64,000 nt of DNA from a virus (Duplodnaviria; Caudoviricetes): IMG/VR virus record IMGVR_UViG_3300028887_000078; one strand, 5' to 3'. The stretch's first letter is position 1. The number at the start of each line of letters is the position of its first letter. The position numbers and the translations under genes are program-made. This document shows, piece by piece, positions 641-61,504 of the stretch. Under the pieces are notes generated by a model. It saw only the letters and a program-made list of their open reading frames with translations. It was not told the origin of the DNA and did not search any database.

Positions 641-1051
641 ATGGGCAGGTTTAGTGATATATTGCCTGAAATAGAGTCGTTTGAGGTTGGGAAGGAAAAG
701 GACTCTGACAATTATTTCGTTGAATGGAAGTTCAATATGTTGAGTAATTACGACGAGGAGGTCTGTAAGTGCATTTCAGAAGGCGCACCCATAACCGTGT
801 GGTTTGATGAAGTCCGTTGCATCACGTTCAATGGAAACGAGAGTGATGTCGTGAAGGAAAAGAGCAGGGTTGTTGTCACGTTCCGCAACATATTTGCGAC
901 GCCAAAGGACGTGGTGTGCGGTATGTGGATTGAAAACGATATTTTCTGCGACCTTTTCAATGAGAATACGGCATTTTCCTCGATTGATTTGTATATTGGG
1001 GAATATGCAAAAAAAATCGCGGAGTTTTATGGCATTGCGTTGGGTTCGTAA
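641..1051 (+). CDS. Hypothetical protein; last codons supplied by the IS607-like insertion
   Basis: 136-aa ORF coupled to the upstream gene; ends TTG GGT TCG TAA across the element's left junction. Confidence 0.7.
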   Translation: MGRFSDILPEIESFEVGKEKDSDNYFVEWKFNMLSNYDEEVCKCISEGAPITVWFDEVRCITFNGNESDVVKEKSRVVVTFRNIFATPKDVVCGMWIENDIFCDLFNENTAFSSIDLYIGEYAKKIAEFYGIALGS

Positions 1052-1143
1052 CAGTTCCTTGAAAATCTAATAAAATCTACGAAAAACTTGTAAAAACTAA
1101 CTGATATAAATATATTATAGTTTCAGACTATTTATAAATATAA

Positions 1144-1251
1144 TGAACGGAAGTAGCAAGACGTTCAAATTATTCAAAAGAAGATATATAGGGATAACTC
1201 CATCTCGGTTCTTGCTACGTTTTATTTACCGAGCGGATGCGTCCCTTTTTT
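1144..1251 (+). ncRNA. Structured 5' leader of tnpB (two hairpins with complementary loops, terminator-like end)
   Basis: TGAACG/CGTTCA stem with loop GTAGCAAGA (1153-1161); CTCGGT/ACCGAG stem with loop TCTTGCTAC (1210-1218); GGGA...TCCC followed by T6. Confidence 0.55.
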
Positions 1252-1258
1252 ATTGACT

Positions 1259-2515
1259 ATGTTGCGAGGAATCAAGGTAAGGTTATATCCCAACAAGGAA
1301 CAGCAGGCAAGACTGAATCAAGTTCTTGGTTGCTATAGATTTGTGTATAACAAGACACTTGAACTCAAACGCAATGTCTATGACGAGGACAAGACCAACC
1401 TCAAACTAACCGACATTTCAAAGTGGTTTCACGGAACGCTGTTAAAAGATGAAAACTATGCTTGGTTGCAGGAACAGAACACAAAGGTGATGAAACAGTC
1501 AATCCGTCAGATGCTTGACGCTTATTCAAACTTCTTCAAACAGCACAAGGGATTCCCGAAGTTCAAGTCAAAGAAGGACAACCAATCGGCATTGTTTCCA
1601 TACGAGGCGATTTCCAAACGCAACACATTCAACGAAAGAAAAATAACTCTCACTAAAGACCTGAAGAACATCCGTTTCAGATGTTCCGACTTGTATTTCA
1701 AGAGACTTCAAGACTACAAAGATTGTATAAGGAGTGCAACCGTTTCGAGAACCAAGAGCGGCAACTACTTCCTTTCAATCCTTGTTGACATCCCGAAGGA
1801 AGAACTTATCAAGTTCAAGCATACCAAGCAGTGTGTCGGAATAGACCTCGGAGTCAAGGATTTTGTAATCACAAGTGACGGCGAGGTCTTTGAAAACAAA
1901 CACTTTTTCAAAAAGCAAGAAAAGAAAGTCAAGCGATTGCAGAAGCAACTGTCAAAGAAAGTAAAAGGTTCACACAACCGAGAGAAACAGCGTGTCAGAA
2001 TTGCAAAGGCGTTTGAACGACTTACCAACCAAAAGGATGCTTATATTCATTCGGTTGTGAATGCTTTGTTGTCTTTGTACGACTTGGTTTGTATAGAGGA
2101 TTTGAATGTGCAGGGAATGGTGAAAAACCACAAATTAGCAAAAGCAATTCAAGAGGTCGGTTTCTACAAGTTCAAGCAGATTTTGCTTGACAAAGCAAGT
2201 GTCAACGGCAAGCAGGTTGTCTTGGTTGACCGTTTCTATCCGAGCAGCAAGACCTGCCACAAGTGCGGATATGTGAAGAAAGATTTGACTTTGAGTGACC
2301 GTGAATGGGTCTGCCCTATTTGCGGTGAGCATCTTGAAAGGGACATAAATGCTGCAATCAACATATTGATTGAAGGATTAAGAATAATAGGTGTCCGTAG
2401 CACCGAATTTACGCTTGCGGAGAACCCAACCGTGGATGACCGTCTGGCAACAGACCTAAAAAGCGGTGGTTCGTTGAAACAAGAAAGAAGGACTAATAAT
2501 TCCAATTTTTATTAA
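1259..2515 (+). CDS. tnpB: TnpB RNA-guided endonuclease (intact RuvC triad)
   Basis: N-terminal KVRLYPN HTH; GIDLG, IEDL, CxxCG-CxxCG zinc finger, RDINAA; ATG 1259 preferred over TTG 1253. Confidence 0.95.
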   Translation: MLRGIKVRLYPNKEQQARLNQVLGCYRFVYNKTLELKRNVYDEDKTNLKLTDISKWFHGTLLKDENYAWLQEQNTKVMKQSIRQMLDAYSNFFKQHKGFPKFKSKKDNQSALFPYEAISKRNTFNERKITLTKDLKNIRFRCSDLYFKRLQDYKDCIRSATVSRTKSGNYFLSILVDIPKEELIKFKHTKQCVGIDLGVKDFVITSDGEVFENKHFFKKQEKKVKRLQKQLSKKVKGSHNREKQRVRIAKAFERLTNQKDAYIHSVVNALLSLYDLVCIEDLNVQGMVKNHKLAKAIQEVGFYKFKQILLDKASVNGKQVVLVDRFYPSSKTCHKCGYVKKDLTLSDREWVCPICGEHLERDINAAINILIEGLRIIGVRSTEFTLAENPTVDDRLATDLKSGGSLKQERRTNNSNFY

Positions 2516-2555
2516 ATTTTTCTATACGGTTTGGGTGGTTGAATGATTGTTGCGC
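2388..2555 (+). ncRNA. omegaRNA scaffold overlapping the tnpB 3' end, with predicted guide 2536-2555
   Basis: GGTG..GCACC hairpin and CTTG-CGGAG...GAAA-CAAG stem; matches the orphan copy at 60240 with compensatory changes. Confidence 0.7.
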
Positions 2556-5119: not shown

Positions 5120-6403
5120 CGGAATTATCCCTTTAGTCTTGTAAAATGTGAGTAATATAAATATAGTATAGTATTTCAATCAGATGGAGAGGACGTACAC
5201 ATATAAGTTCAGGTTATATCCGAACAAAGAACAAGAGATTTATCTCGTCAATGTGTTTGGATGTTGCAGGCTTGTATATAACCATTTCCTCAATGAAAAG
5301 AAAACCCAATACAATGAATCCAAAACAAGTGATTCGTACAATGTTCAATCAGGTAAATTAACTGAACTTCGTAAAACGAATGAATTTGAGTTCTTGAATG
5401 CTGTTCCTTTGCAGGTATTACAATGCAGTTTGAGGAATATGCACAATGCTTATGACAACTTCTACAAACACAAAAGTTCCTATCCGAAGTTCAAGAACAG
5501 AAGGAACAAACAGTCGTTTAAGTTACCACAAGAACAGTGTTTTAGAATAAAAGATAACAAACTTTACATTCCTAAACTAAAAAGCGGAATTGACATTGTA
5601 ATGGAACGTAAGATTATAGGCAAAATATGCTTTGCCACAATCTCAAAGAATAAGGCGGGCAAATACCACATAGCAATTACTGTTAAACAGGATTACATAC
5701 CTTATGGAAAGACCAACCGTTCTGTCGGTCTTGACCTCGGCATAAAGGATTTCGTCATCACAAGTGACGGGGTTAAATACAAGAACCATAGAAGTATAAT
5801 AAGGACATTAAAACGTAAACTAAAACATAACCAAAGACATCTGTCAAGGAAAGTTTATGGTAGCAAGCGATACGAAAACCAAGTGTTGAAATGCAACCGA
5901 ATCTATCAGAAGATAACAGATGCCAAAACTGACTACATTCATAAGATAACCACAGAACTTGTCAGACACTACGATGTGATAAAGGTTGAAGACCTAAACA
6001 TTAAAGGGATGATGAAGAACCACAAGTTGGCAGAGGCAATATCAGAATGTAATTGGTATCAGTTCATTCAAACTCTTGAATATAAGTGTTTGTGGAATGA
6101 AAAAGAACTTATAAAGATTGACCGTTTCTATCCGTCAAGTCAGATGTGCAGTGAATGTGGTTATGTTGAAAAAAAAGTCAGAAACCTAAATGTGAGGGAA
6201 TGGACTTGCTGTAACTGCGGTTGTCATCACGACCGTGATGTAAATGCAGCAAGAAACATTTTGAAATATAATTCGGCAAGGAATGTCGAAAACAGTCGTG
6301 GAGTTGTATGCAAACTGAATGAAAGAACCAAATCAGTTGGTGATTGTTCGGACAACTGTGAAGCGATTATTGAACTTTTACAAGACTAAAAGGGATAATT
6401 CCG
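5120..6403 (+). mobile_element. tnpB cassette bounded by 27/28-bp terminal inverted repeats
   Basis: CGGAATTATCCCTTTAGTCTTGTAAAA (5120-5146) vs TTTTACAAGACTAAAAGGGATAATTCCG (6376-6403); flanks TAAATAAT / TAAATAAA. Confidence 0.75.
5184..6389 (+). CDS. tnpB: TnpB RNA-guided endonuclease (intact RuvC triad)
   Basis: YKFRLYPN, GLDLG, VEDL, CSECG-CCNCG, RDVNAA; stop codon lies inside the right inverted repeat. Confidence 0.95.
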   Translation: MERTYTYKFRLYPNKEQEIYLVNVFGCCRLVYNHFLNEKKTQYNESKTSDSYNVQSGKLTELRKTNEFEFLNAVPLQVLQCSLRNMHNAYDNFYKHKSSYPKFKNRRNKQSFKLPQEQCFRIKDNKLYIPKLKSGIDIVMERKIIGKICFATISKNKAGKYHIAITVKQDYIPYGKTNRSVGLDLGIKDFVITSDGVKYKNHRSIIRTLKRKLKHNQRHLSRKVYGSKRYENQVLKCNRIYQKITDAKTDYIHKITTELVRHYDVIKVEDLNIKGMMKNHKLAEAISECNWYQFIQTLEYKCLWNEKELIKIDRFYPSSQMCSECGYVEKKVRNLNVREWTCCNCGCHHDRDVNAARNILKYNSARNVENSRGVVCKLNERTKSVGDCSDNCEAIIELLQD

Positions 6404-6429
6404 TAAATAAATATAGCAAAGATTTGATT

Positions 6430-52701: not shown

Positions 52702-52732
52702 AAAAACGTTTCATTTTTTGTTATATTCAAGT

Positions 52733-54493
52733 ATGGACAAAAAAGAAATAATAGACGAGGTTCTAACAAGGCGTATATGCAATGGGAAGTCGTTCGCCAA
52801 AATGTTTCCGAAGGAATATGGCGAGATGATGAAAATCGAATTTCCAAAGGATTTCAAGTTTTCACAGAAACTTTATCATTATCTGAATTGCGACGACAAC
52901 CTTGAACTTGGGTTGTGTCCGGAATGCGGAAGTCGCTGTGGATATATAAACCTGAAACGCGGGTACCATACCTATTGCTCTTCAAAATGTGCCACGTCTT
53001 CCAATGCGGTGCAGGAAAAGATGAAGGCGACCTGCCTTGAAAAGTACGGCGTTGAAAGTCCGACAAAAAACAATGATATTAGGGAACGTATAAAGAACAC
53101 CAACATTGAAAAATATGGTGTTGACAACCCTATGAAGTCCGATTTGGTGAAACATCGTGTGATACAAAACACGCTTGAAAAATATGGAGTGGAACACACA
53201 ACACAACTTGAATGTGTGAAAGAAAAGATAAAACAGGCAAACCTTGAGAAATACGGGTGTGAATGTGTGTTCGGGTCGGATGTGATAAAGGACAAGATAA
53301 AACAGACAAACCTTGAAAAATACGGCAGTGAATACATAGGCGGTTCGGAGGAAATTCGTAAAAAAATCGAAGAGCGCAACTTTGAGAAATACGGTGTTAA
53401 ATGCACACTTGAACTCGATTGCATCAAGGAAAAATCAAAGAAGACCAACCTTGAAAAATACGGTGTTGAGCATCCTGCACAATCGGAAGAGATACAAAGC
53501 AAGGCGAAACGGACGAACAATATGAAATATGGTGTCGATTTTCCATTGTCGTCAAAAGAAGTCCGTGAAAAAATAAGGAAAACAACACTTGACCGATATG
53601 GTGTAGAATGGGCGTGTATGCGAACGGAGGCGAGGAACTATTCCAACGACTCGAAACCGAACAGGGCGTTTGCCGAACTTTTGTCCGAACGGGGTGTCCA
53701 ATTCGACCGCGAGTTCCCGCTTGGCAAGTATTCCTATGATTTCAGAATCGGCGACACCCTTGTCGAAATCAATCCGACAATCACGCACAACTCGTTTTTA
53801 AGTGTTTTTGGGGATGCTCCGAAGTCAAACGACTACCATTGCCAAAAAAGTGAAACAGCCTCTAAAAACGGTTATAAATGCGTCCATATATGGGATTGGG
53901 ACGATGTTGGCAAAGTGGTCGCAATGTTTGTGGAAAAGACAACCCTGCACGCAAGGAAACTGAATGTGTGTGTTGTGGGCACAAACATTGCGGACGTATT
54001 TTTCAACGAGAACCACATACAGGGAACCTGCCGAGGGAAGTCGCTTTGTGTCGGTCTCTATGACAACGGCACGCTTGTTATGTGTATGGCGTTCGGCAAA
54101 CCGAGATACAACAGGAATTATGAATTTGAACTGTTGAGGTTGTGTACGAAACAGGGATATGCGGTTGTCGGCGGGGCGGAGCGTCTGTTCAAGTTTGCGC
54201 TTGACAGACTTGAATGTTCAAGTGTGATAAGTTATTGTGACTGTTCAAAGTTCAGCGGCGATGTCTATGAGCGACTTGGTTTCAAAAAAGTCCGCACTTC
54301 AAAACCGACGAAGCATTGGTTCAGGATGTCGGACAGGTGTCACGTCACCGACAACCTGTTGAGGCAGCGCGGGTTCGACCAACTGTTCAATGCAAATTAC
54401 GGAAAGGGGACGTCGAATGAGGAACTTATGCTTGAGAATGGATTTCTTCCAGTGTATGATTGCGGTCAGGACATTTGGTCTTATGAACGGTAG
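52733..54493 (+). CDS. Free-standing homing-endonuclease-like protein (KYG repeats plus Vsr/PD-(D/E)xK-like nuclease and Hef-like C-terminus)
   Basis: CPECG..YCS.KC zinc finger, about 9 T.LEKYG repeats, YDF...LVEIN...TH, HIWDWD, NHIQG, ELLRLC, YDCG. Confidence 0.75.
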   Translation: MDKKEIIDEVLTRRICNGKSFAKMFPKEYGEMMKIEFPKDFKFSQKLYHYLNCDDNLELGLCPECGSRCGYINLKRGYHTYCSSKCATSSNAVQEKMKATCLEKYGVESPTKNNDIRERIKNTNIEKYGVDNPMKSDLVKHRVIQNTLEKYGVEHTTQLECVKEKIKQANLEKYGCECVFGSDVIKDKIKQTNLEKYGSEYIGGSEEIRKKIEERNFEKYGVKCTLELDCIKEKSKKTNLEKYGVEHPAQSEEIQSKAKRTNNMKYGVDFPLSSKEVREKIRKTTLDRYGVEWACMRTEARNYSNDSKPNRAFAELLSERGVQFDREFPLGKYSYDFRIGDTLVEINPTITHNSFLSVFGDAPKSNDYHCQKSETASKNGYKCVHIWDWDDVGKVVAMFVEKTTLHARKLNVCVVGTNIADVFFNENHIQGTCRGKSLCVGLYDNGTLVMCMAFGKPRYNRNYEFELLRLCTKQGYAVVGGAERLFKFALDRLECSSVISYCDCSKFSGDVYERLGFKKVRTSKPTKHWFRMSDRCHVTDNLLRQRGFDQLFNANYGKGTSNEELMLENGFLPVYDCGQDIWSYER

Positions 54494-58840: not shown

Positions 58841-59977
58841 ATGCAAATTCAGAAAGTATGTGTAAGTGATGGTGACACATTGGAACAAAAAACCATCAAT
58901 GTCCCCGTTGAGAACGGCGAGAAAATCATTTCAACAGAACCATACATTTTAGACTGTATCAACAAGTACAGGGCAAGTTGGGGCGGAAGCACGCTTGAGG
59001 ACATCTCCGACTTTGAAAAGTCAGGAAGCAACCAGCTGCTTGAAAACGTGACCATCGAAAGGACTGACGACAAGTTCGTGATAGACCTCAACAAGAAGTA
59101 TGACTACCAAATGCCCGTTGAGAGCGAACCCGAAGAAGTAGTGTCGAGTTTCGATGTCGGTGTCAAGTACAAGATTCCCGTCGCCGCAAACACGAAAAAT
59201 GGCATCAACATTTCAATCAAGGACTCAATCAAACTTGCGGTCAAGAACGAATTGCGTGCCGCCGCAGTGACGCACAACACGTCCAATGCCTATTCAGCGC
59301 ATATAGACGAGTGTATCAACGGAGGTTACTATGTGACCATTCAGGGAGTGAAGTGCTTTATGCCTGGCAGCACGGCAAGTCTTTACAAACTGAAGGACTT
59401 CGAGAGCATTGTCGGAACCGATGTGATGGTCATACCCACTATGTACAATATGCAGCGGGACATCGTTGTCGTTTCGCACACCGCTTTCCTTGAGGCAATC
59501 AAACCGACCGTGCTTGACAGGGTTATGCAGGAAGAGAGGGACAATGAGTTCACAGGTGTTGTCACGATGCGCAAGCACGAATATTTGCTCATCACATTCA
59601 ACGAGTGTCTTGCAGGAAAACTGTCCTATGCCGATATGGACGACGAGACGAAGGAACTTTTCAACAGCAATATGATAGAGGTTGAAAAGACCGAACTCAA
59701 GTTCAAAATCGACTATGAGCAGAACGGTCAGTTGCTTCTCACACAGACGTTCAGGACGCGCAAGATATGGGACGAGAAGGTTGACGAGGAGTTCAAACCG
59801 AAATCGGTTATGGACGGCGTGGTTGTCGGGAACTCGAAGAAGTTCACCCTCGTGCAGTTGAAGTACGGCATCATCGGAACGCTCCCGTACAATGAAAGCG
59901 CAACGAACGGCGAACATCTGAAAGTCAAGATTGTGAGCGTGGACAAGGAATCAAGAAAAATAAAACTTGCACTATGA
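58841..59977 (+). CDS. Ribosomal protein S1-like multi-OB protein
   Basis: NGGY.V.I.GV.CFMPGS, VVVS, and terminal G..LKVKIVSVD.E.RKI.L S1 repeats. Confidence 0.8.
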   Translation: MQIQKVCVSDGDTLEQKTINVPVENGEKIISTEPYILDCINKYRASWGGSTLEDISDFEKSGSNQLLENVTIERTDDKFVIDLNKKYDYQMPVESEPEEVVSSFDVGVKYKIPVAANTKNGINISIKDSIKLAVKNELRAAAVTHNTSNAYSAHIDECINGGYYVTIQGVKCFMPGSTASLYKLKDFESIVGTDVMVIPTMYNMQRDIVVVSHTAFLEAIKPTVLDRVMQEERDNEFTGVVTMRKHEYLLITFNECLAGKLSYADMDDETKELFNSNMIEVEKTELKFKIDYEQNGQLLLTQTFRTRKIWDEKVDEEFKPKSVMDGVVVGNSKKFTLVQLKYGIIGTLPYNESATNGEHLKVKIVSVDKESRKIKLAL

Positions 59978-60186
59978 TAACAGAAAACAAACCGACAATC
60001 ACGAATGTGGTGTACTCCTCCATAACGAAGGACTTGATTGTAACCTATTCGGATGGCAACATAACCAAGTACCTGAATGTTCCGCAGGATGTGTACGAAA
60101 GCATCATCAACAGCGGAAAGGTCGTTTCGGACTACCTGAAGGAGAACCTTGACGCGAACTACAGGAAATTACAAAGCGTTCTGTGA
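59974..60186 (+). CDS. KTSC-domain protein
   Basis: I..V.Y......L.V.Y..G....Y.NVP..VY..+..S. Confidence 0.8.
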   Translation: MITENKPTITNVVYSSITKDLIVTYSDGNITKYLNVPQDVYESIINSGKVVSDYLKENLDANYRKLQSVL

Positions 60187-60367
60187 AAGATTCAGCATTT
60201 CAAGGTTGAATATGAAATGAAACAATTATAAATAAAATGTAGGTGTGGGACGCACCGAATTTAAGCGTGTGGAGATGCGGGAAATAATTTTGAACGCTAT
60301 AAAGCATCCAAAACAATCAGCATCGTTGAATCACGAAGATTCCACCTTTAGGGTGGAAACAGTTCAC
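60173..60367 (+). mobile_element. ORF-less IS200/IS605-type miniature element carrying a late promoter and an omegaRNA
   Basis: Target TTAC (60169-60172); AAAG followed by left hairpin ATTCAGC/GTTGAAT; right hairpin TTCCACC/GGTGGAA ending GTTCAC. Confidence 0.75.
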
Positions 60368-60387
60368 AAAGTGTTTAACATAAAAAA
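60240..60387 (+). ncRNA. Stand-alone omegaRNA (scaffold 60240-60367, predicted guide 60368-60387)
   Basis: TAGGTGT..GCACCGAATTTA.GC.TG.GGAG...TCGTTGAA.CA.GAA shared with the tnpB1 3' end, with covarying stems; TATAAATA at 60227-60234. Confidence 0.75.
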
Positions 60388-60397
60388 ATAAAATACT

Positions 60398-61504
60398 ATG
60401 TCAGCAAAAGACGATACAACAAAACAGTATGAGGAAGACCTCATCAAAGAATTTTCCGAAAGAAACGAAACCTCAAACGAAGTGCCTATGGAACTCGGCG
60501 CGGGCAATGTGTACGGCAGACCCGACGAACACGAACCTGTGCGAGACCTCGGCAAGGTGAAGAACCCAGGAAACCGCCCGAATTTTATGACAAGGGATGA
60601 GTTGGACAACGACCCTGAAGTGCAGCGTATGAACTCGCTTCTGAACTATGTTCGGGTTCCGATTGAGAACTTCCCGTCGGAAGGTCGTTTCTACGCGGAC
60701 GACATAAGCGTGCACATCCGCGCCTGCCGTGTGGGTGAAATCCGCGAATACTCAATGATGGACGAAAGCAATCCGAACGACATCATCGACAAGATGAACT
60801 ATATGCTTGCAAACTGCACGAAGGTTTCCTTCGGAGGTATGCCCGGCAGTTACAAGGACTTGCTTGAGCACGACCGTTTCTATCTCATCAAGAGGATTCA
60901 GGAACTCACGTTCAAGAACGGAGAGACCGTCATCAACATCCCTGTTCCTGACGGTGCGTGCAAGACACCGGGTTGCAAACCGCAGACGGAGGTGAAACTG
61001 ACGAGCGATATGCTCGAAAGACCCGAACCTGACCCGCAGTTGGAGAAATACTACGACCCCGAAAACAAGTGCTATTCAATCAAGACGAAGCACTACGGCA
61101 CAATCCAAATCGCCCCGCCGACCATCGGTGTGACAAGCATTGTGAGGGATTGGGCAATCGAAAGGACGCAGAACCAAAAGCATTGGGACCAAGCGCTCGT
61201 GCAAATCATCCCGTTCTTCCGTCGTGATTGGCGCCAGTTCAAGGAGAAGGACGTGTTCAACCTCGCAACCGAGTTCGAGAATTGGGACGCCACGAAGTTC
61301 ACCCTCATCTACAGAATGATTGAAAAAATAAATGCGACAGTCGGAATGTCCCCGAACATCCACGTCCGTTGCGAGTCTTGCGGAGGGGATATGGAAATCC
61401 CCGTGATGTTTCAGACCACAAGTGACGATGGACAGGAAGTACGAGGAGGATTCAAATCGCTATTTGTTCCGCCTATTTCAAATCAACTTGACGAACTTCT
61501 TTAG
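60398..61504 (+). CDS. Baseplate hub assembly protein (T4 gp26-like)
   Basis: PSEGRFY, IR...V.E, DL...DR.Y+...I..LTF, P.IG, CESCG; followed by a gp51-like ORF. Confidence 0.7.
   Translation: MSAKDDTTKQYEEDLIKEFSERNETSNEVPMELGAGNVYGRPDEHEPVRDLGKVKNPGNRPNFMTRDELDNDPEVQRMNSLLNYVRVPIENFPSEGRFYADDISVHIRACRVGEIREYSMMDESNPNDIIDKMNYMLANCTKVSFGGMPGSYKDLLEHDRFYLIKRIQELTFKNGETVINIPVPDGACKTPGCKPQTEVKLTSDMLERPEPDPQLEKYYDPENKCYSIKTKHYGTIQIAPPTIGVTSIVRDWAIERTQNQKHWDQALVQIIPFFRRDWRQFKEKDVFNLATEFENWDATKFTLIYRMIEKINATVGMSPNIHVRCESCGGDMEIPVMFQTTSDDGQEVRGGFKSLFVPPISNQLDELL

Follow-up and report, generated by a model that had tools for sequence, protein, structure and literature searches.

Architecture of the KTSC Locus

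The window analyzed here, a 64,000-nucleotide stretch of DNA, contains genes for a portal protein, NrdD, a helicase, an RNA ligase, and a homing endonuclease, and is part of a large phage of anaerobes (gut or rumen). A comparison of its DNA with a phage GenBank collection found no similarity. Near one end of the window, the open reading frames include a 70-aa gene with a KTSC domain (positions 59974–60186; Pfam PF13619, E 9e-8), followed by a gene for a 368-aa protein (60398–61504) with weak Pfam resemblance to T4 baseplate proteins and membership in a PHROG family of unknown function. Both genes, and all features of the locus described below, lie on the plus strand. A gap of 211 nt separates them. 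The KTSC gene ends with AAA TTA CAA AGC GTT CTG TGA, and its final codons reach into a 195-bp segment (60173–60367) that is absent in all sampled relatives and has ends homologous, weakly so on the left, to those of the IS605-family loci L048, L047, and L056.

The empty state of the site is well represented. In 14 related contigs the segment is absent and the KTSC gene terminates, with LQSV or LQRV, about 20 nt before the next gene, and in two IMG/VR relatives (about 75% protein identity, neighboring gene) the stop codon stands directly before it. All other members of the 90% protein cluster of the KTSC product are 69 aa long, and a KTSC protein search returned four clusters, all 69 aa with LQSV or LQRV ends; the product of the window ends in LQSVL. 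Flanks of contigs from the KTSC clusters are 76%–95% identical to the window. In relatives with 66%–95% nucleotide identity, the site reads ...AAATTAC up to the insertion point and AGAG(C/T/A)GTTTAACAT..ATG beyond it, with the ATG about 20 nt later. In the alignment, the left flank of the window agrees with these relatives up to ..TTACAAAGCGTT and the right flank from ACAAAGTGTTTAACAT. The occupied, 70-aa allele was found in two to three contigs only, with the same 211-nt gap. The 195 bp were inserted after the split from every sampled relative. An apparent 433-bp gap 3' of the KTSC gene in another contig (L040) is a scaffold gap of Ns and was rejected as an insertion.

A preliminary description of this DNA had proposed such an insert, and both its existence and the positions given for every feature between 60169 and 60387 hold. 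The insert-free allele that it had reconstructed does occur in relatives, but it reads TTACAGAG(C/T/A)GTTTAA and not TTACAAAGTGTTTAA.

Directly 5' of the insert lies TTAC (60169–60172), a target- or TAM-like tetranucleotide that is also present in the empty sites of close relatives. On the opposite side, the right end is followed by AAAGTGTTTAACATAAAAAAATAAAATACT and then ATG. The flank at 60368–60387, delimited by the conserved right end and the empty-site alignment, reads AAAGTGTTTAACATAAAAAA; it represents the putative guide (AAAGTGTTTAACATAA...) and, at the same time, the displaced original end of the KTSC gene (GTT TAA). The element probably entered on the 3' side of TTAC, at a point nine bases short of the KTSC stop codon, once this lineage had separated from all sampled relatives. 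The insert would persist because it is nearly neutral: the KTSC protein retains LQSV and gains one Leu.

A Complete omegaRNA Scaffold and Right End

A pattern scan and a whole-library protein search identified four tnpB-linked loci with related scaffolds: L047, on a JGI contig; L048 (TnpB P0017), which also has a recognizable left end; and L056 (TnpB P0012) and L058 (TnpB P0007). In the latter two, a Y1 transposase gene (TnpA; PF01797) lies beside tnpB, and the family is therefore bona fide IS605. A covariance-model search of the scaffold, suggested in the preliminary description, was run with a model (R1) built from these four tnpB-linked scaffolds, with the insert left out. R1 matches 60240–60367 over its full length (model positions 1–129; 93.4 bits, E 1e-22). 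It scores only 24.7 bits on the 3' end of tnpB1, one of two tnpB genes in the window, and has no other match there.

The fold and the sequence agree with this assignment. The consensus fold has compensatory double changes at 7 of its 21 pairs, to which the insert conforms, and RNAfold gives the insert and L047 one shared architecture. Common to the insert and the tnpB 3' ends of L047, L048, L056, and L058 are the first hairpin GGTGTGGGACGCACC, the P2 helix, the terminal hairpin, and AGTTCAC. This terminus is conserved in six tnpB-linked elements (L047, L048, L049, L050, L055, and L056), which diverge immediately 3' of it. In the insert, the right-end hairpin is formed by TTCCACC (60340–60346) and GGTGGAA (60352–60358), and GTTCAC terminates at 60367; the right end, ..GATTCCACC TTTAG GGTGGAA ACAGTTCAC, falls on the boundary set by the empty sites. 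Rfam contains no family for the RNA of the insert.

Kinship of the scaffold to the tnpB1 3' end had been proposed earlier. The stems do covary in the manner described, with a third version in the G002 orthologue, and the one internal blastn match in the window joins the insert to the tnpB1 3' end (2388–2423; 80% over 36 nt, E 1e-3). However, the best relatives are the IS605 elements L047, L048, L056, and L058. The insert had also been called ORF-less. It contains no intact protein gene, but a relic of the TnpB C-terminal tail is still open (60245–60391; ..GRTEFKRVEM..HEDSTFRVETVH) and aligns with the P0017 tail, ..GRTKFTPVEI...QEDSTFKVELVH, in tblastn (49% identity over 43 aa, E 3e-5). With no tnpB gene overlapping or upstream of it, and just this 43-codon relic, the scaffold is a stand-alone copy. 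On these sequence comparisons, identification of the insert as a tnpB-less, PATE-like IS605 mini-element with a complete omegaRNA is well supported.

Further copies of the mini-element were sought in the window, IMG/VR, JGI metagenomes, and GTDB genomes with exact patterns (the right-end hairpin plus AGTTCA(C), and the first hairpin plus GAATTTAAGC), which diverged copies could escape; none was found, and only tnpB-linked relatives were returned. In five related large-phage records, R1 detected no strong copy, and weak tnpB1-type matches scored 20–36 bits.

Left End and Promoter Box

The core of the left end (60186–60219) comprises AAAG (60186–60189), an imperfect hairpin formed by ATTCAGC (60190–60196) and GTTGAAT (60205–60211), and ATGAAA. 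It was recognized by its likeness to the left end of L048 and to the insert's own right arm. The ends had been described as IS608-style; the motifs are present and the ends resemble the IS605 type, but the left hairpin is thermodynamically unremarkable, with one G.T pair and a fold not better than those of shuffled sequences (z -0.42). Because the fold alone is not notable, the case for this hairpin depends solely on its resemblance to the right hairpin of the insert itself (AAGATTCAGCATTT on the left versus AAGATTCCACCTTT on the right, 79% alike; repeat family D1) and to the left end of L048, with a 25/32 identity over the hairpin that was equalled by 11 of 500 shuffles. Upstream of its tnpB gene, L048 reads GTGAAAGATAGATTCCACCTTTTAAGGTGGAATGTGAATTTCACTTTATAAAATATAG, which repeats the hairpin of its right end and continues into a TATAAAATA box; the corresponding left part of the mini-element is GTGAAAGATTCAGCATTTCAAGGTTGAATATGAAATGAAACAATTATAAATAAAATGTAG. 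A hairpin followed by (A/G)TGAA(T/A) is common to the insert, L048, L049, and L056.

Two other arrangements were considered and rejected. A MITE-like structure with terminal inverted repeats and a target-site duplication would have only a 6-nt inverted match (TGTGAA/TTCACA), which overlaps the direct repeat described below, and a 7-nt complementarity between 60175–60181 and 60291–60297 is at chance level.

The promoter box, TATAAATA, occupies 60227–60234, 5 nt upstream of the scaffold start at 60240, and aligns with the TATAAAATA box of L048. We take TATAAATA to be the established T4-type late-promoter consensus. The window contains 26 copies of it, compared with 1.1 expected, and at least 17 of them lie 7–80 nt upstream of a same-strand open reading frame; for the copy in the insert, the next gene is 163 nt away. 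With this enrichment, and with most copies placed shortly upstream of genes, the box is a credible candidate for the phage late promoter that had been claimed. Both tnpB genes in the window are also preceded by TATAAATA boxes (1105 and 1133; 5110 and 5156).

In L048, ATATAG occurs twice, once in the left-end promoter box and once directly before the scaffold. A deletion from one ATATAG to the other would yield nearly the junction of the insert, which is therefore read as a left end, a promoter box, and an omegaRNA with its right end. The mini-element probably arose in this way within a parent element, by deletion between such short repeats. It would have retained a short left end, its own TATAAATA-type promoter box, and the last approximately 128 nt with the complete omegaRNA scaffold and the right end.

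No terminator was found between the insert and the downstream gene, and a transcript from the box would therefore read on into that gene. Late transcription from the box is probable, with the RNA forming the leader of the downstream mRNA. Such an arrangement raises the possibility that the insert was co-opted as a cis-regulatory module, supplying an extra TATAAATA late promoter and a structured leader to the 368-aa gene rather than a guide RNA. In empty alleles the KTSC gene and the next gene are only about 20 nt apart, with no TATAAATA between them, and the insert brings a box of the enriched class to a position 163 nt upstream with no terminator between. Yet the relatives manage without the insert, and the box was inherited from the transposon left end; we regard a regulatory role as improbable.

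The Re-encoded Tail and Mode of Arrival

A 10-nt near-direct repeat (repeat family D3; 90% identity, spacing 195) marks the junctions. Its left copy, ACAAAGCGTT, lies at 60171–60180, and its right copy, ACAAAGTGTT, spans the junction of right end and flank at 60366–60375, as aligned with the relatives. When the first 8 nt of the insert and of the right flank are compared, seven are the same, with a probability of about 4e-4 per site by chance. The preliminary description had pointed out that the insert re-encodes the gene tail that it displaces, from LQSV to LQSVL. This observation is correct, and it coincides with the near-duplication of ACAAAGCGTT and ACAAAGTGTT.

Two origins of the match were weighed: a canonical insertion 3' of TTAC by a left end that begins AAAGCGTT, and an event that duplicated part of the target. 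The first appears somewhat the likelier of the two, and the second is a serious but lesser candidate. No target duplication is expected from canonical IS605 insertion, yet the insert lies between direct repeats that agree at 9 of 10 positions.

In place of TnpA-mediated peel-and-paste, recombination or repair could have duplicated 8–10 nt of the target, either through short-homology recombination between a right-end/left-end junction and a look-alike target or through break repair that copied from a donor. The tail at the start of the insert would then be the left copy of the duplicated target, and the element proper would begin CTGTGAAAG. The repeat lies exactly at both junctions, and the AGC in its left copy is that of the closest relatives (L028 group), with the AGT of the right copy found in the L035 group. 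In addition, L048 and L058 show no conservation of the insert's first 10 nt in their left ends, the window lacks a Y1 TnpA, and in the same window tnpB1 is situated between duplicated TTGGGT motifs where the empty site (L043, L044) has one. Against duplication, the distance from TTAC to the left hairpin, 16 nt in the mini-element, is close to the 18 nt in L049, which has ..AAAAAGCG.. at that place; AAAGCG is present there too, and these features fit a sequence borne by the left end and a canonical insertion 3' of TTAC. Both copies of the repeat have CAA where all relatives have CAG, and no known mechanism for the duplication has been demonstrated. Arrival by duplication is held to be possible but doubtful.

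It is important to note that neither origin requires purposeful design. The apparent re-encoding may reflect chance together with selection, or may be a by-product of the 10-nt duplication, and adaptation is not needed to account for it. Selection for harmless sites in a gene-dense genome would favor a site at which the tail is restored.

Candidate Nucleases and the Guide

The cognate TnpB clade of the scaffold comprises P0017, P0007, and L047. No tnpB gene of this clade was found in the 64-kb window by R1 scan or tblastn, nor was a Y1 TnpA (best tblastn E 0.68). The two TnpB proteins encoded in the window, tnpB1 and tnpB2, are 28%–31% identical to the clade. Provisional descriptions of other stretches of this genome list only tnpB1, tnpB2, and one further orphan end (..GGTAGTTCAT).

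The preliminary description interpreted the mini-element as an active, late-expressed, trans-acting guide with which a phage TnpB cuts insert-free alleles of co-infecting relatives beside TTAC; the expected target would be TTAC-flanked AAAGTGTTTAAC. Cutting would serve either spread by recombinational repair, that is, an RNA-guided form of intronless homing, or the exclusion of competitors, and the left end would have been adapted to preserve the tail of the interrupted gene and to spare the resident allele from cutting. Several features fit such a scheme. A complete scaffold lies directly 3' of a promoter box, the guide is identical to the empty site as reconstructed, and close relatives have kept the TTAC. 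The window encodes two intact TnpB proteins with aligned catalytic D/E/D positions, and chance would rarely produce the match of the left-end start to the flank (about 4e-4 per site). Between the guide and the resident allele, 7 of 16 positions are mismatched, which bears out the divergence that had been proposed. More generally, stand-alone omegaRNAs function in trans with compatible effectors (PMC10691335), and non-restorative homing into co-infecting phages has been proposed (PMC13565253).

The details of the nucleases and of the target sites argue against this scheme. The window lacks the cognate clade, to which tnpB1 and tnpB2 are only 28%–31% identical, and the R1 score of the tnpB1 scaffold is 25 bits versus 93 for the insert. 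The guide-adjacent 3' part of the tnpB1 scaffold, ending ..TTCTATACGGT, differs from that of the insert, ending ..AGTTCAC. A TnpB using a TTAC-like TAM had been anticipated, but tnpB1-type elements adjoin GGGT at the left end and not TTAC (four of the four with a recognizable left end). TAM-proximal mismatches are poorly tolerated by TnpB. In all sampled empty alleles guide position 2 is G instead of A, and most have another mismatch, at position 5 or 16. The insert is confined to one lineage, with no sign of spread. It is also inherent in any IS605 right end that the guide corresponds to its own empty site. A guide acting in trans with a phage TnpB on insert-free relatives is therefore unlikely.

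A broader version would dispense with a nuclease from the phage itself. In this guide-only form of homing, an element with no nuclease of its own would borrow a compatible TnpB, cut TTAC-flanked empty alleles, and be copied in by repair. Selection would have made its left end restore the final codons of the interrupted gene, which would allow the insert to reside in conserved coding sequence. Such an element would be the counterpart, guided by RNA and without a nuclease, of intronless homing in T-even phages. Host IS605 copies, a co-infecting phage, or the unseen part of the genome may provide the TnpB. This reading is speculative and has a small probability. Nothing found supports a present function in either trans-guiding or homing, and both are improbable.

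The data are best explained by a non-autonomous, tnpB-less derivative of an IS605-family element (Y1 TnpA plus TnpB type) that probably persists as an orphan guide. Its RNA would guide to the ancestral empty site and would be usable only by a TnpB of the same clade, whether encoded elsewhere in the genome, by the host, or by a co-infecting phage; given the nucleases seen in the window, the insert is most likely an orphan and presently inactive. Some observations temper this explanation. Every helix of the scaffold is intact and the relic frame is still open, as might equally be expected of an RNA that selection still maintains. In its 5' half the scaffold closely resembles that of tnpB1 (80% over 36 nt), which makes cross-use possible, and a cognate tnpB may lie outside the 64-kb window, given that the contig is at least 163 kb long. 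The homology of the left end is weak, with 11 of 500 shuffles as good. No second copy of the mini-element was found in the searched sets, and its mobility in this form is unproven.

Relationship to Known Mobile Guide Elements

IS608 of Helicobacter pylori is the prototype of the IS200/IS605 family. Like the insert, IS608 is found 3' of TTAC, with AAAG 5' of the foot of the left hairpin and subterminal hairpins at both ends (mechanism in PMC10055086). The right end of the insert differs in being TCAC, not TCAA, and the hairpin sequences are unrelated; Y1 TnpA is present in relatives of the insert.

Elements that carry a guide RNA and no nuclease are already known as a class described in bacteria, to which the window adds one phage case. 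PATE-like IS605 elements "often encode omegaRNAs" (PMC10055086), and PATEs (Meers et al., 2023, PMC10055086) resemble the insert in having a left and a right end, no protein gene, an omegaRNA in the right end, and TnpA and TnpB presumably supplied in trans. In Geobacillus stearothermophilus, PATEs are multi-copy and their ends match a resident TnpA (PMC10055086). In contrast, the insert is present as a single copy, its left hairpin is diverged, the window shows no TnpA, and a near-duplication of 10 nt flanks it.

According to the account in PMC10691335, stand-alone omegaRNAs are mobilized without an effector or a transposase and are active in trans with compatible effectors. Those of the OMEGA systems (Altae-Tran et al., 2021, as related in PMC10691335) share with the insert a mobilized scaffold joined to a transposon end, the lack of an effector and a transposase, and a guide derived from the flank. 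In the same account, the compatible effector lies in the same genome and activity in trans was shown, whereas the insert is carried by a phage and has no effector visible in the window.

The free-standing homing endonuclease genes of T-even phages (PMC13565253) provide a further parallel, as small selfish inserts between conserved phage genes. In T-even intronless homing, as would apply to the insert, the specificity of the nuclease fits the insert-free allele, and the resident allele is protected by sequence differences (PMC13565253). The insert differs in that it encodes no nuclease, and recognition, in any putative homing or exclusion, would be by RNA. Homing of such transposons into co-infecting phages is a theoretical type (PMC13565253). 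TnpB genes in phages are known (bioRxiv 10.64898/2026.02.14.705889).

Particular to the insert are the pair of occupied and empty alleles, the fusion of promoter and scaffold, and the near-silent position in the last codons of a gene. With both alleles known, it offers a clean natural example of the decay of IS605/TnpB elements into promoter-plus-guide-RNA modules in large phage genomes, and it illustrates how such inserts can last where genes are densely packed, with the protein of the interrupted gene left intact. Should a compatible TnpB be found, phages with the occupied and the empty site would allow RNA-guided homing or exclusion between co-infecting phages to be tested directly, an idea that has so far only been proposed in the literature.

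Other tnpB Elements and Nuclease Genes

The tnpB1 element of the window (1043–2530) is likewise located in the last codons of a gene, a 136-aa open reading frame (641–1051) ending ..ALGS. TTGGGT stands on both sides of the element, and the empty site of a 73%-identical relative, GCGTTGGGTGCTTGA, has TTGGGT once (L043:1150–1215; L044). Here too, an insertion is near-silent and has a duplication at its flanks for which canonical IS605 insertion offers no explanation. A general tendency of tnpB1-type left ends to give upstream genes a stop codon was considered and dropped; an open reading frame enters only the copy in the window.

Scaffolds of the tnpB1 type (window 2388–2530; L015–L026, L045) occur in many IMG/VR phage contigs of 100–330 kb. 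All of them end ..TACGGT or ..TACGAT and diverge thereafter. In four tnpB1-type elements, GGGT lies just 5' of a conserved ..TAAC(A/T)GTT, which suggests a GGGT-like adjacent motif for this clade. A related 192-kb phage contig (G002) contains an orphan copy, about 90% identical, of the last approximately 120 nt of its own tnpB1-type gene (L013:1501–1617, minus strand). It consists of scaffold and right end with no tnpB upstream and is another stand-alone scaffold remnant.

The tnpB2 gene (5184–6389) has inverted repeats of about 27 bp (GGAATTATCCCTTTAGTCTTGTAAAA) at 5120–5146 and 6377–6404, and its stop codon lies inside the right repeat. The same repeats surround tnpB2 homologues in G002 (L010, L012) and are unlike IS605 ends. 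A 591-aa open reading frame (52718–54493) matches PHROG homing-endonuclease/HNH families (E 5e-87), from which the phage is predicted to encode a classical free-standing homing nuclease as well.

Among the relatives of the insert, a contig of a Ruminococcus MAG (L055:1186–2499, minus-strand coordinates) has ..GTGGGTAGTTCAT 41 nt upstream of the IS605 left hairpin. This sequence resembles a right end of the same family, which suggests a tandem insertion with the right-end terminus as the target motif. Two further loci, L020 on a 52-kb IMG/VR contig and L046 on a JGI contig, encode a tnpB with a related compact scaffold. Their tnpB frame is interrupted by several in-frame TAG codons and otherwise open, which suggests a recoded stop codon in that virus.
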